This document shows, piece by piece, positions 4,798-18,354 of a stretch of DNA of 20,984 nt. The stretch's first letter is position 1, and every line of letters starts with the position of its first letter. This DNA is from Candidatus Sulfobium sp. (GTDB lineage Bacteria > Nitrospirota > Thermodesulfovibrionia > Thermodesulfovibrionales > UBA6898): the NCBI GenBank assembly GCA_037380845.1, contig JARRRI010000077.1, forward strand, positions 1 to 20,984. Reading direction: 5' to 3'. The position numbers and the translations under genes were made by a program. The notes under the pieces were generated by a model. It saw only the letters and a program-made list of their open reading frames with translations. It was not told the DNA's origin and made no database searches.

Positions 4798-6483
4798 TCA
4801 GACAGCCGGCATCAAATCTTTTATACGGCCGAAGACTTCTCCGACCTTTACCTTGACCGATTCCTTTGACCTGCGGTCCTTTATCTCTACGAGTCCTTCT
4901 TTGAGGTTCCGCTCTCCGAAAATAATGTGTGTCGGTATTCCTATGAGGTCGGCGTCCTTGAACTTCACGCCGGCCCTTTCGTCACGGTCGTCCATCAGGA
5001 CTTTGATCCCGTCTTTTTCCAGATCTTCGTAGAGTTGTGAAGCCGCTTCGACTGTAACCGGGTCGTTCATGTTCAACGGCAGTATCTCGACGTCGAAAGG
5101 GGACAGTGACCTGGGCCAGATGATCCCGTCCCTGTCATGGTTCTGTTCGACCGCCGCAGCGGCGATACGGGCAGGTCCTATGCCGTAACTACCCATGACG
5201 ATCGGCTCCTCCTGTCCGCTTTCATTGAGAAAAACGGCACCCAGAGGACGGGAGTACTTGGTCCCCAGCTTAAAGATATTGCCGATTTCGATGACCCTTT
5301 CAACTCGCAGTTTCTCTCCGCACTTTCCGCAGAGATCGCCTTCCCGGGCCTTATGGATGTCATGCCATTCAGCGGAAAAATCGCGTTCCGCCCTGACCCC
5401 CTTCAGGTGATAATGCGGCTTGTTGGCCCCGCTGACAAAAAACCCTTCGCGGAGGGCGGTGTCAGCGATGACTCTTACCTTATGTCCCATGGGTCCTATG
5501 AAACCAGCCTCGACACCGAGTGTCTCCTTTACCTCGCCTTTCTGCGCAGGTCTGTGGTCCCCGATTATATGTGAGAGTTTCTTTTCGTGAAGTTCCTGGT
5601 CGCCTCTGACGACCGCGAGCACCGGCCCCTTCTCGCTTATCAGGAGGATGCTCTTCATGAAATAAGAAGGCGGCAGTTTCATGAAATTCGAGACTTCCTG
5701 TACGGTCCGTTTTTCAGGGGTGTGGACTTCCTCGAGCGGCCAGTCCTCATTCTCATTTCCCGGCGTCGAGGAAACGGCGAGTTCAACATTGGCGGAGTAC
5801 CCGCAGCCGGGACATACGGCAACCTCGTCCTCTCCGGCCGGACTCGGGGCCATGAACTCATGCGATACTGCGCCTCCCATCATGCCGGGGTCGGACTCGA
5901 CCATCAGGAATTCGAGGCCGCACCTCTTGAATATCCTGTGGTAAGCTTCGGTATGCAGCCTGTAGTTTACGTCAAGGGCTTCTTCGGAGACGTCGAAACT
6001 GTAGCTGTCTTTCATGGTGAATTCCCTGGTCCTCAGAATTCCGCTCTTCGGCCGCGCTTCATCTCTGAGTTTTGTCTGTATCTGGTACCACACCTGCGGA
6101 AGATCCCGGTATGACCGGATTTCCCTCGACGCAAGCCATGTCATGATCTCTTCGTGGGTCATCCCCAGACACATGTCGCGGCCCGAACGGTCTTTGAGCC
6201 TGAACATCTCGTCGCCTATCGCGTCCCAGCGACCGGTCTGCTGCCAGATCTCGGCAGGGTGGAGCACGGGAAGCGATATCTCCTGCGCGCCTATCGCGTC
6301 CATTTCCTCTCTCAGGATGGCGTTTATCTTTGTCATCACCCTCCATCCCAGGGGGAGCAGCATATAAAGACCCGCGGCCAGCTGGCGCACGTAACCGGCC
6401 CGCAGCATCAATATGTGGCTGACAGCTTCCGCATCCGCCGGGGCCTCCCGCAGTGTGGGTATGAACATTTTAGAAAACCGCAT
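4798..6483 (-). CDS. proS: Proline--tRNA ligase (bacterial type with editing insertion)
   Basis: 'PTLRExPADAExxSHxLMLRAG', 'THEE', 'RDEARP..G..RTREF.MKDSYSF', 'MGSYGIG', 'GVKFKDADLIGIP'; GGAGGA SD. Confidence 0.97.
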   Translation of the reverse strand: MRFSKMFIPTLREAPADAEAVSHILMLRAGYVRQLAAGLYMLLPLGWRVMTKINAILREEMDAIGAQEISLPVLHPAEIWQQTGRWDAIGDEMFRLKDRSGRDMCLGMTHEEIMTWLASREIRSYRDLPQVWYQIQTKLRDEARPKSGILRTREFTMKDSYSFDVSEEALDVNYRLHTEAYHRIFKRCGLEFLMVESDPGMMGGAVSHEFMAPSPAGEDEVAVCPGCGYSANVELAVSSTPGNENEDWPLEEVHTPEKRTVQEVSNFMKLPPSYFMKSILLISEKGPVLAVVRGDQELHEKKLSHIIGDHRPAQKGEVKETLGVEAGFIGPMGHKVRVIADTALREGFFVSGANKPHYHLKGVRAERDFSAEWHDIHKAREGDLCGKCGEKLRVERVIEIGNIFKLGTKYSRPLGAVFLNESGQEEPIVMGSYGIGPARIAAAAVEQNHDRDGIIWPRSLSPFDVEILPLNMNDPVTVEAASQLYEDLEKDGIKVLMDDRDERAGVKFKDADLIGIPTHIIFGERNLKEGLVEIKDRRSKESVKVKVGEVFGRIKDLMPAV

Positions 6484-9984: not shown

Positions 9985-10067
9985 CCGTCATTCCCGCGCA
10001 GGCGGGAATCCACGTTTATTTTCTTTAGGAGAAAATGGATTCCCGATTGCGACCTCGGGAATGACGG
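9985..10067. repeat. GTCAT-family palindromic repeat, copy C
   Basis: CCGTCATTCCCG ... CGGGAATGACGG perfect 12-bp ends; internal GCGGGAATCCA and TGGATTCCCG. Confidence 0.9.
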
Positions 10068-10070
10068 CAA

Positions 10071-10133
10071 CCCATCACCCATTACCCATTGCCTATTACC
10101 CATTGCCTATCGCCTATTGCCTATTGCCCATTG
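10071..10133. repeat. Nine tandem heptamers, consensus CCYATYR
   Basis: cccatca cccatta cccattg cctatta cccattg cctatcg cctattg cctattg cccattg. Confidence 0.9.
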
Positions 10134-10155
10134 CCCCGCATCTGTCTTTCCATTA

Positions 10156-10193: not shown

Positions 10194-10679
10194 ATGTTAC
10201 GGTTGTCGACGAAAGGACAGTACGGCGTGAGGGCCATGTTCGAGATAGCCAAGGGGTATAAGAAAGGGCCTATCACGATTAAGGAAATCTCGGAGAGACA
10301 GGACGTTTCCGTGGCCTATCTGGAGCAGATATTGAACAAACTGCGAAGGGCCGGCCTGATCAGGAGCGTCAAGGGGCCGGGCGGCGGCTATATGTTGAAC
10401 GGGGCGCCGGAGGGGATCAGTATCGGTGCTATTCTGAGGGAACTCGAAGGTCCTGTGGCGATCACGTCCTGTCTGGACCCGAAAGAGGGGTGTATGAGGG
10501 TCGACGGATGCGTTACCCACTTGCTCTGGAAAGCCCTCGGAGAAAATATCGAGGCATTTCTCGACAACATGAGCCTCAGGGACCTGCTGGATGGAAATGA
10601 GTTGATAAGAATCGGAGGAAGGGGCAGCCGGCAGAGGAAAGGAAAGGGAAAGGACGTCGAGGCGGCGAAGTCTTTGTGA
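10194..10679 (+). CDS. iscR: Rrf2-family Fe-S regulator, IscR-like
   Basis: 'LSTKGQYGVRAM', 'YLEQILNKLRRAGLIRSVKGPGGGY', ligand pattern C-x6-C-x5-C-x2-H-xLW; lies upstream of iscS/iscU. Confidence 0.85.
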   Translation: MLRLSTKGQYGVRAMFEIAKGYKKGPITIKEISERQDVSVAYLEQILNKLRRAGLIRSVKGPGGGYMLNGAPEGISIGAILRELEGPVAITSCLDPKEGCMRVDGCVTHLLWKALGENIEAFLDNMSLRDLLDGNELIRIGGRGSRQRKGKGKDVEAAKSL

Positions 10680-10930
10680 TGAAATTTGTCGAGAACGTAA
10701 AACCGGACGTAACCACTGATATCGTGTATATGATGTGCCCCATGCATCTCCTGAAACTGGAGGAGCAGATGAAAGAGCTTGAGCCGGGACAGATACTCGA
10801 GATCATGACCGATTATGACGGCGCACTTGAAGATATCCCGTCATGGTGTGAGAAGACAGGAAACGAGTTTCTGGGCATGGAGGACTCAGGCGATTTCTTC
10901 AAATTTTATATAAAGAAGCGCGCGAGGTGA
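10679..10930 (+). CDS. TusA/SirA-family sulfur carrier
   Basis: 'D....MCPM', 'LEPGQILEIMTD..GALEDIPSWCEKTGNEFL', 'FKFYIKK'; start overlaps the iscR stop. Confidence 0.88.
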   Translation: MKFVENVKPDVTTDIVYMMCPMHLLKLEEQMKELEPGQILEIMTDYDGALEDIPSWCEKTGNEFLGMEDSGDFFKFYIKKRAR

Positions 10931-10932
10931 GT

Positions 10933-12135
10933 ATGAAAAAGCTTTATTTTGATCATGTAGCAACGAACCCGCTGCATCCTGATGCCCTTGAGGCGATGAT
11001 GCCTTATCTGAAGGAAGAATTCGGCAACCCGATGAGCGTTTACGAATATGGAATTACGGCAAAAAAGGCTATTGAACTTGCCAGGGAGAAGGTTGCGGCT
11101 CTTGTGAATTCGAAGCCTGCGGAGATTATTTTTACGGCCAGCGGCGCCGAGGCCAACAACTTTGCGCTGCGCGGAATCGCCCTTGCAAGGCAGAACGAGG
11201 GGAAACACCTGCTGGTTTCGAGGATGGAACACCACTCGATACTGAATTCGGCGAGGTTCCTGGAAAAAAGCGGTTTTGCGGTAACATACCTGCCCGTCGA
11301 CAAGAACGGACTGGTGGATCCTGAAACAGTGAAGAAGGCCATCACCGATCAGACGACGTTGATCTCCATAACTCATGCCAGCAGCGAGGTGGGGACGATT
11401 GAGCCCATCAGGGAGATCGCGAAGGTGGCAAAGGAGCGGAAAATTACGGTCCATACCGACGCGGTCGCAACGACCGGAAACATTCCCATTGACGTTAAGG
11501 AACTCGGAGTCGATTTGCTCAGCATGTCCTCACATCAATTCTACGGCCCCAAGGGAGCAGCCGCGCTTTACGTAAAACAGGGCACCAGGATTGTTCCACT
11601 TATTTATGGAGGCATTCAGGAATCGGGCAGAAGGGCCGGCACCGAGAACGTTCCTGCTATCGTGGGAATGGGCAGGGCCGCGGAGCTTGCGAAGACGGAT
11701 ATGCAGAAGAGGATTAAACACCTGCGGCCCCTGAGAGACAGGATTATCGACACGATGTCCGGGGTGCCGAACGTCTATCTTACGGGGCACCGGGAGCACA
11801 GACTGCCCGGTCACGCCAGCTTCTGCGTGGAGTTTATCGAGGGAGAGGCCATGCTTCTTCTCCTTGCGGGGAAAGGTATTTTTGCTGCGAGCGGGTCGGC
11901 CTGTTCTTCAAAGGCATTGAAGGCGTCGCCGGTGCTCCTGTCCATGGGCATTTCTTCCAGTCTCGCGCAGGGTTCGATCGTTTTTTCGCTGGGAATGGGA
12001 AACGGTACCGAAGACGTTGGTTATCTGCTTAATGAATTCCCCGCTGTTATTAAACGGCTGAGAGAAATTTCCCCCTATGCGCAGGGGTGGGGGAACAGAG
12101 AGGAAGGTGGAGAAGAATGTACAGTGAAAGAGTGA
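10933..12135 (+). CDS. iscS: IscS/NifS-family cysteine desulfurase homologue with degenerate PLP active site
   Basis: 'YFDHVAT', 'EHHSIL', 'HQFYGPKG', 'RAGTENVP', 'SGSACSS'; GAGGT SD before the ATG at 10933. Confidence 0.88.
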   Translation: MKKLYFDHVATNPLHPDALEAMMPYLKEEFGNPMSVYEYGITAKKAIELAREKVAALVNSKPAEIIFTASGAEANNFALRGIALARQNEGKHLLVSRMEHHSILNSARFLEKSGFAVTYLPVDKNGLVDPETVKKAITDQTTLISITHASSEVGTIEPIREIAKVAKERKITVHTDAVATTGNIPIDVKELGVDLLSMSSHQFYGPKGAAALYVKQGTRIVPLIYGGIQESGRRAGTENVPAIVGMGRAAELAKTDMQKRIKHLRPLRDRIIDTMSGVPNVYLTGHREHRLPGHASFCVEFIEGEAMLLLLAGKGIFAASGSACSSKALKASPVLLSMGISSSLAQGSIVFSLGMGNGTEDVGYLLNEFPAVIKRLREISPYAQGWGNREEGGEECTVKE

Positions 12136-12521
12136 TGGACCATTTCATGAACCCGAGAAACGTGGGGGACATGGAAGACGCGGACGGGGTCGGGACGGAA
12201 GGGAACCCCACGTGCGGAGATGCGATGAAGATCTTCATAAAGGTGAAAGACGGCCGGATTGTGGATGCCAAATTCAAGACCTTCGGCTGCGGGGCGGCTA
12301 TTGCGGTAAGCAGCATGGTTACGGAGATGGTGAAGGGCAAGACGCTCGATGAAGCCCTCGCCATATCCAAAGAGACGGTCGCGAATGAACTGGGAGGTCT
12401 CCCCCCAGCCTTTTCCGTCATGCCCGAGGTCTTAGTCGGGCATCCATACTGTGTGAAAACCTGGATTCTCGATGCGAGTCCCGAAGCGGGTCTCCGCGCA
12501 GGGTCGCTACGACTTTGCTGA
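12117..12521 (+). pseudogene. iscU: IscU/NifU-type Fe-S scaffold truncated after GGLPP (residue 97), reading into repeat D
   Basis: 'MYSERVMDHFMNPRNVG', 'GNPTCGD', 'FKTFGCGAAIA' present. The KxHC motif and final helix are absent; the last 37 aa are translated repeat. Confidence 0.8.
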
Positions 12522-12595
12522 GAGTCGCTTCGACCCGATTACTACCTCGGGAATGACGAATTCGAAATACAATTCCTTTTATACAATGACAGGTT
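12409..12595. repeat. Long composite GTCAT-family repeat, copy D
   Basis: CGTCATGCCCGAGG ... CCTCGGGAATGACG (12416-12558) plus an AT-rich tail; colinear with copy E. Confidence 0.88.
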
Positions 12596-18190: not shown

Positions 18191-18354
18191 CCCTTTCGTC
18201 ATGCCCGAGGCCTTGGTTGGGTATTCAATCCGTCTGAAAATCCGGATTCTCGATGTCTCCGCGTAGGGTCCGACTTCGCTGAGAGTCGCTTCAACCCGAT
18301 TACTACCCCGGGGATGACGGATTTGAAGCATAATTCTCTTTGCAACATCGGGTT
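18191..18354. repeat. Long composite GTCAT-family repeat, copy E
   Basis: CGTCATGCCCGAGG ... CCCCGGGGATGACG; shares GGATTCTCGATG, GCTGAGAGTCGCTTC and ACCCGATTACTACC with copy D. Confidence 0.88.

Follow-up and report, generated by a model that had tools for sequence, protein, structure and literature searches.

A conserved lysine-less IscS homologue encoded with TusA and IscU in Candidatus Sulfobium and its relatives across bacterial phyla

In the archaeon Archaeoglobus fulgidus, IscS carries an aspartate in place of the Schiff-base lysine, is reported to lack desulfurase activity and contributes its cysteine as a ligand of the cluster on IscU (PMC8918507; bioRxiv 10.1101/2024.03.20.586028). 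Its crystals are described as containing pyridoxamine 5′-phosphate (PMP) or pyridoxal 5′-phosphate (PLP) despite the missing lysine (PMC8918507), and the same sources term the protein "unusual" or "exceptional", not a member of a large family (PMC8918507; bioRxiv 10.1101/2024.03.20.586028). Both iscS2U2 of A. fulgidus and iscSU of M. thermoacetophila are reported to have failed to complement an E. coli mutant, even with sulfide (bioRxiv 10.1101/2024.03.20.586028). Reviews treat the solved A. fulgidus pair, inactive and lacking an established sulfur donor, as an oddity, and the question of how the "minimal" systems of anaerobes obtain sulfur for their iron-sulfur (Fe-S) clusters has yet to be settled. 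Here we describe IscS*, a 400-residue protein of IscS/NifS fold encoded as a single open frame at 10933-12135 on the + strand of contig JARRRI010000077.1 of a Candidatus Sulfobium sp. genome; the whole stretch analyzed, 20,984 nucleotides (nt) long, is referred to as the window. Its gene content is bacterial, and by the source names of near homologues the organism belongs to Nitrospirota (Thermodesulfovibrionales). IscS* lacks the residues that bind PLP and substrate, keeps the Cys loop, and is the third gene of a tightly packed Rrf2-TusA-IscS*-IscU operon. We consider it, with a probability of roughly 0.6, to be a non-desulfurase partner of IscU that would receive sulfur via TusA or from sulfide, with Cys324 as carrier or ligand.

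The A. fulgidus IscS2-IscU structures (4EB5, 4EB7 and 4HVK, with the D199K variant 4R5F) share with IscS* a type I fold, the absence of the Schiff-base lysine, the Cys loop and an IscU alongside, and the two IscS proteins are close in both sequence (phmmer E ~3e-111) and structure (Foldseek template modeling (TM) scores 0.90/0.97, root-mean-square deviation 1.4). They differ in that IscS2 is archaeal with Asp at the lysine site, whereas IscS* is bacterial with Gln, has also lost the equivalents of E. coli N154/N155 and T76, and belongs to an operon with Rrf2 and TusA. A second archaeal protein, M. acetivorans IscS1 (MA0808, isc1), is described as being without the essential lysine and other PLP-binding residues and as paired with IscU1, with four further genes of unknown function clustered alongside; its authors suggest that it acts like A. 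fulgidus IscS, the recombinant protein having formed inclusion bodies and so being uncharacterized in that report (PMC7585200).

The closest solved sequence is a 406-residue "cysteine desulfurase" present in the PDB as seven variants (9wep, 9wer, 9wew, 9wf8, 9wfb, 9wfe and 9wfy), which match IscS* with E values of 5.5e-125 to 9.7e-124 and lie nearer still to two members of its clade, P0125 and P0138. These variants differ from one another at the equivalents of T76, N155, Q183, K206 and R354, the positions changed in the IscS* pocket, and to judge from their sequences the series looks like a stepwise mutagenesis of this pocket in a relative. A literature search, with subscription journals mostly outside its reach, returned no paper on this series and none on bacterial lysine-less IscS or its link to TusA or DsrE.

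Among active enzymes, E. coli IscS (3LVL with IscU, 3LVJ with TusA) shares the fold (39% identity, TM 0.91) and the partners IscU and TusA, and its long Cys loop is reported to reach both of them (PMC2854127). It differs in being catalytically active with PLP and in donating sulfur to TusA, while IscS* is without the catalytic residues. The operons also differ: that of E. coli holds hscBA, fdx, iscA and iscX and no tusA, whereas that of the window has tusA and lacks hscBA, fdx and iscA. The minimal iron-sulfur (MIS) system, MisS-MisU, is an S-U pair without chaperones, ferredoxin or A-type carrier, assignment to it being phylogenetic. Finally, the DsrE-TusA relays of dissimilatory sulfur metabolism (e.g. 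sHdr-associated) are reported to feed sulfur oxidation and not Fe-S assembly (PMC11094781). Their TusA plus DsrE_2 (PF13686) module is found beside lysine-less IscS in other phyla, and the window operon differs from them in having TusA and no DsrE.

Pocket residues, fold and selection in IscS*

E. coli K-12 IscS, extracted from its genome record, was aligned with IscS* to set the residue equivalences, and each codon was read directly on the + strand. The Schiff-base lysine K206 is replaced by Q202 (CAA, 11536-11538), and the substrate-carboxylate arginine R354 by V350 in the motif GSIVFS (GTT, 11980-11982). Three further sites are altered: A179 stands for Q183 in DAVA (GCA, 11467-11469), S150/S151 for N154/N155 in HASSE (AGC AGC, 11380-11385) and A72 for T76 (GCC, 11146-11148). 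The persulfide/ligand cysteine C328 is present as C324 in SGSACSS (TGT, 11902-11904). The first-pass annotation of this gene had listed four of these substitutions and an intact Cys loop; its residues and codon positions are all correct, and the alignment bears out the changes K206Q, R354V, Q183A and N154/N155 to S/S. Its list was incomplete, as it held neither the fifth change (T76A) nor the TusA gene of the operon nor the spread across phyla.

PF00266 (class-V aminotransferase) covers residues 5-365 (E 2.3e-77), and the scores for NCBIfam NifS TIGR03402 (476.4) and IscS TIGR02006 (377.5) fall below the respective cut-offs of 530.75 and 643.2. An AlphaFold model built with 58 sequences reached a mean predicted local distance difference test (pLDDT) of 89.8 and a predicted TM score (pTM) of 0.88, with low certainty only at the Cys-loop tip (residues 325-328) and in the C-terminal tail. 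Foldseek gave TM scores of 0.90-0.93 between this model and human NFS1, A. fulgidus IscS and E. coli IscS. The predicted fold is whole, with the change confined to the pocket.

In E. coli IscS, the substitutions K206A and Q183E are each reported to abolish desulfurase activity (PMC9978102), and by analogy with these mutants and with A. fulgidus IscS we infer that the activity has been lost in IscS*. Since the Schiff-base lysine and four further PLP- or cysteine-binding residues are gone, the protein would form no persulfide from cysteine. IscS* would thus descend from a type I cysteine desulfurase (EC 2.8.1.7), having lost catalysis and kept the dimeric fold, an IscU-docking C-terminus and a long, flexible Cys loop. 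It is improbable, in our estimate, that catalysis persists in a residual or altered form, with PLP, PMP or another ligand bound non-covalently and a non-cysteine substrate or a very slow reaction. Such activity would fit the retention of H100, D176, S199, H201 and T237 (E. coli H104, D180, S203, H205 and T243), the PMP or PLP reported in A. fulgidus IscS crystals and the reported ability of E. coli K206A to hold some PLP (PMC9978102). What argues against it is that five pocket residues have been replaced jointly, including the carboxylate-binding arginine and the base lysine, that 111 of 120 close homologues have Ala at the S203 equivalent, and that the lysine site varies across the clade (Q, P, L, R, T, M, D and others), unlike what a new conserved chemistry would leave.

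The pocket state is shared by the close relatives of IscS*. Among its 120 best database homologues (79-100% identical, query counted), Q202, V350, A72 and C324 are each present in 120/120, A179 in 116, S150 in 118 and S151 in 117. Codons at these sites vary synonymously among 43 distinct orthologues from the class: Q202 is CAG in 40 and CAA in three, C324 is TGT in 22 and TGC in 21, all four Val codons are in use at V350, and site 179 is written with four Ala codons in 40 orthologues and encodes Ser in the other three. Over the whole gene, the ratio of nonsynonymous to synonymous substitution rates (dN/dS) had a median of 0.064 (range 0.023-0.159) in the 67 of 903 pairs that were usable (0.05 < dS < 2), synonymous sites being saturated in most of the 903. 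These sequence comparisons indicate that the pocket state is kept under strong purifying selection.

The first-pass annotation had proposed a selected pseudoenzyme, as against decay or sequencing error, and the data uphold that proposal on the sequence checks it named, among them the presence of canonical desulfurases elsewhere in the genome. The adjacent iscU is indeed broken in the same assembly, which might suggest strain-specific decay or an error of sequencing or assembly in an ordinary iscS. The break is an assembly deletion associated with a high-copy repeat, however, and lies outside the IscS* gene. Logan contigs from two marsh metagenome runs matched 11400-12143 with zero mismatches, and those from two more runs differed only at 11598 and 11716. 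Given these independent contigs, the 120/120 homologues carrying Q and V at the two key sites, and a dN/dS of about 0.06, decay or error in IscS* is ruled out, and we leave it next to no weight.

Linkage to TusA and spread of the lysine-less clade

Three partners accompany IscS* in the operon, with overlapping starts and stops. The first gene (10194-10679, +) encodes an Rrf2-family (IscR-like) regulator (PF02082, E 1.3e-39) with a C-x6-C-x5-C-x2-H cluster-ligand pattern near residues 93-109. The second (10679-10930, +) encodes a TusA-family sulfur carrier (PF01206, E 3.5e-21) of 83 residues from an ATG that overlaps the Rrf2 stop codon; a GTG lies 3 nt upstream. The fourth, iscU, encodes a single-domain NifU_N scaffold; its homologous part (12117-12406, +; PF01592, E 1.1e-40, profile positions 1-101 of 127) begins 19 nt inside the IscS* 3′ end. 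The order Rrf2-TusA-IscS*-IscU recurs in 29 of 30 loci (L009-L038) from genomes of the class Thermodesulfovibrionia, with both the Rrf2 gene, in the same place, and TusA present in 30/30; in L022, no IscU was found within its 1.5-kb flank.

This TusA has the family's conserved cysteine and the aspartates near it. Across 45 TusA sequences of related operons no variation was seen at C20, P21 or D52 and hardly any at D45, and these aspartates are reported to be important in E. coli TusA (PMC2854127). In the window protein, Cys20 stands in a C-P-M-H motif, compared with the usual C-P-x-P. The same C-P-M-H is seen wherever TusA precedes IscS* in the Nitrospirota loci and in a single archaeon of the Hydrothermarchaeota (L009-L055, L108, L111), and TusA encoded downstream of IscS* in other phyla has C-P-M-P.

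To see how far the lysine-less state extends, we took the 150 best clusters (50% identity) from a 1.8-billion-protein library, of which 25 had no Schiff-base lysine. The replacements were Q, T, R, S, I, D, G, L, P, N, A and M. Counting the query, the arginine was also gone in all but three of the 26 lysine-less rows, most of which had Ala for the glutamine (Q183), and the loop cysteine was retained in 149 of all 151 rows. On a FastTree phylogeny of these rows, the lysine state required 5 changes, where shuffled labels needed 22.5. IscS* fell within a supported group of 19 clusters, 18 of them lysine-less; the nineteenth, P0125, has the lysine and lacks the arginine and glutamine.

The A. fulgidus type formed a separate group of four clusters on the FastTree phylogeny (supports 96 and 97), one member of which, P0179, had 4EB5 as its best PDB match. 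This arrangement suggested an independent origin for the two groups, which was not upheld by an approximately unbiased (AU) test on a 61-row IQ-TREE analysis: a single clade for both was not rejected (p-AU 0.689), and the constrained one-clade tree scored 28 log units above a quick free search. Because the AU test does not reject uniting the groups, a single ancient origin of lysine-less IscS is possible on these sequences.

A scan of one genome per prokaryotic species, with two search patterns derived from a 6-row alignment, returned 80 loci with 83 IscS-like open reading frames (ORFs). Seventy-six of these were lysine-less, and every one of the 76 was also without the arginine and had the cysteine. 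The 80 loci belong to Nitrospirota, Chloroflexota, Planctomycetota, Thermodesulfobacteriota, Myxococcota (by record name), Aminicenantota, Acidobacteriota, Bacillota, Actinomycetota, Elusimicrobiota, Omnitrophota, Margulisiibacteriota and one Hydrothermarchaeota archaeon. Among 20 further Nitrospirota loci of other families, 17 were lysine-less and three had the lysine, and all 20 lacked the arginine and glutamine. By these comparisons IscS* belongs to a large, mostly bacterial lysine-less clade spanning more than 10 phyla, whose most constant mark appears to be the loss of the substrate arginine, because some members retain the lysine and lack the arginine. The lysine-less state is no archaeal oddity, being strongly conserved clade-wide in many bacterial phyla and tied genomically to dedicated sulfur carriers, and thousands of proteins now named "cysteine desulfurase" probably cannot be desulfurases.

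Additional copies were noted at two loci. In L058, from a Caldimicrobium metagenome-assembled genome (MAG), two NifU_N genes (5218-5978) follow the lysine-less IscS, the second a weaker match (E 2e-16). The Hydrothermarchaeota genome G410 has another lysine-less gene at L144, in which His replaces the lysine and whose flank lacks TusA.

TusA genes accompany the lysine-less genes and not their lysine-bearing paralogues. In the cross-phylum sample, TusA lay within 1.3 kb of 54 of the 76 lysine-less genes (31 of 52 outside Nitrospirota) and of none of the seven lysine-bearing ones. We also counted all PF00266 genes at E <= 1e-40 in 15 genomes of this sample plus that of the window, after dropping L004, L145, L155, L157 and L159, which had no ORF matching the query at E < 1e-15. 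TusA occurred in the 1.5-kb flank of 14/17 lysine-less against 0/22 lysine-bearing genes, a contrast between related, non-independent genomes that is not a formal test. In the 20 further Nitrospirota loci, TusA lay within 640 nt in 19. Pfam searches on neighbours showed an alternative arrangement, IscS*-IscU-(Zn ribbon)-DsrE_2-TusA, in Dehalococcoidia (two loci), Elusimicrobiota, Clostridia and Saganbacteria. This evidence argues strongly that TusA is tied genomically to lysine-less, and not to lysine-bearing, IscS genes.

Sulfur supply to the IscS*-IscU pair

We propose that IscS* and the IscU encoded at its 3′ end form an Fe-S assembly pair under the IscR-like Rrf2 regulator, in which Cys324 would serve as persulfide carrier and/or fourth ligand of the nascent [2Fe-2S] cluster. 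Sulfur would come from outside IscS*, the likeliest route for sulfane sulfur leading from TusA Cys20 through Cys324 to IscU; elsewhere, in other phyla, a DsrE2-like protein is the partner of TusA. The part of the first-pass annotation that likened IscS* to A. fulgidus IscS is apt, both lacking the lysine and the A. fulgidus protein being reported as inactive with its Cys ligating the cluster on IscU. What is new with respect to that system is a likely sulfur donor to Cys324, namely TusA, with DsrE in other phyla.

A model of the IscS* dimer with TusA agrees with such a transfer. ESMFold2 gave the complex a score of 0.65, a mark reached by 116 of 157 solved complexes and by 2 of 215 mismatched pairs, and the best of three controls scored 0.01; runs shared at least 83% of contacts and the partner pLDDT was at least 86. 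In the model, TusA residues 14 and 16-22, including C20, contact residues 217-233 of one IscS* subunit and, in the second subunit, residues 101-112 and the stretch 327-330 adjoining Cys324. The E. coli IscS-TusA complex has been solved (3LVJ), and there too the loop cysteine is reported to come from the other subunit (PMC2854127). Because that complex is known, the pass may reflect likeness to it only.

The main rival holds that IscS* is purely a scaffold and ligand, which would hold IscU and lend it Cys324 while the sulfur is free sulfide, plentiful in a sulfidic habitat, and TusA serves elsewhere, in thiolation of tRNA or molybdenum cofactor or in regulation. Such a role has been proposed in print for A. 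fulgidus IscS (PMC8918507; bioRxiv 10.1101/2024.03.20.586028), reviews describe minimal systems as able to use sulfide (PMC13066941), and the runs containing the window sequence are marsh and salt-marsh metagenomes. We nevertheless regard it as rather unlikely, if deserving of serious attention, in view of the TusA contrast between lysine-less and lysine-bearing paralogues, the conservation of TusA Cys20 and its aspartates, the modelled position of Cys20 by the Cys loop, and the reported failure of sulfide to rescue the A. fulgidus pair in E. coli.

A smaller role would be that of a modulator, IscS* competing or pairing with canonical NifS/IscS enzymes for IscU or TusA and so tuning sulfur flow. 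The genome of the window (100% complete, 104 contigs) does encode two canonical desulfurases elsewhere, both with K, R, Q and NN: a NifS that follows a three-domain NifU on contig 1 (L001 662-2688), and a 382-residue enzyme beside a RapZ-like P-loop gene on contig 20 (L003 1429-2577), the third desulfurase-type gene of this genome. Their presence and the Rrf2 regulator at the head of the operon would suit a modulator. Against this, a dedicated IscU with overlapping frames accompanies the gene in 29/30 loci, and at least two genomes have lysine-less copies alone: at a PF00266 threshold of E <= 1e-40, no canonical IscS, NifS or SufS was found in the complete 1.1-Mb Dehalococcoidia chromosome (L070/G402) or in the Clostridia MAG (G404), where all matches were lysine-less. 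We therefore see very little likelihood in a purely modulating role.

Several points weigh against a non-desulfurase IscS* supplied through TusA. Sulfur in E. coli is reported to flow in the opposite direction, from IscS to TusA (PMC2854127), and with two canonical desulfurases in the genome, cysteine could be the ultimate sulfur source. The failure of A. fulgidus iscS2U2 to complement E. coli, even with sulfide, counts against it by analogy, and IscS* may bind some cofactor, as the PMP or PLP of the A. fulgidus crystals would suggest. TusA is absent within 1.3 kb of 22 of the 76 lysine-less genes, a count that also favours the scaffold alternative, and is present in 0/3 from Aminicenantota/Acidobacteriota. 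The sampling has its own slant, since one scan pattern is biased toward Q or G where the lysine would be, and possession of a lysine-less gene was the ground for picking the 15 control genomes. Some members of the clade have the lysine and no arginine (P0125; L161, L163, L177) and may be intermediates or reversions. All of these lysine-bearing members are also without the glutamine, yet stand beside IscU and TusA; L161, L163 and L177 come from one Nitrospirota family.

Taken more broadly, lysine-less IscS and TusA, joined in numerous phyla by a DsrE2-like protein, might constitute a distinct, widespread and desulfurase-independent entry of sulfur into Fe-S assembly, in which sulfane sulfur from the sulfide/polysulfide/thiosulfate pool would pass through DsrE/TusA to the Cys loop and IscU. 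We advance this only tentatively, at less than even odds. If true, such a route would be the sole ISC-type sulfur supply in some anaerobes, as in the 1.1-Mb Dehalococcoidia genome.

The iscU junction, repeats and other genes of the window

In the window assembly, the homology of iscU ends after G-G-L-P-P at 12406, its last ~25 codons being gone, and with them the K-x-HCS ligand motif that is present in 28 of the 30 class loci. A dispersed repeat resembling a miniature inverted-repeat transposable element (MITE), about 160 nt long with inverted ends and assigned by blastn against the genome, abuts the break at 12407-12570. It has dozens of copies in the genome (e.g. 92% identity over 159 nt on contig 9) and a depth 10-45x that of its flanks in the metagenome runs, reaching a word depth of 2131 against ~46 in run X1. 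In contigs of runs X1, X2 and X9, additional sequence at 12406/12407 restores the iscU frame and its ligand motif: up to ~183 letters in X1 and X2, at a depth equal to the flanks, while the X9 contig reads Q-K-M-H-C-S-N-L-G in frame past 12406. The window is thus short by as much as ~183 nt at this point. The break is an assembly deletion and not biology, because these letters fall exactly at 12406/12407, and a genuine truncation as the main form of the organism is ruled out by the three contigs. A tblastn search of the 104-contig assembly did not find the missing tail.

Further MITE-like copies occur in the window at 18194-18341 and 664-695 and on many other contigs, the longer matches having 74-94% identity over 100-190 nt. 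The intergenic segment before the Rrf2 gene (9985-10150) contains short palindromes like the ends of the dispersed repeat, as well as a series of short, degenerate repeats resembling CCATTGCCTATTG. A promoter scan returned 2 sigma-70-like sites, with 1.9 expected from shuffles, and none before the Rrf2 gene. Among the listed runs that contain the sequence, none was an RNA run. The window also encodes RNase Y, RNase G, GreA, YmdB, alanine racemase and heptosyltransferases.

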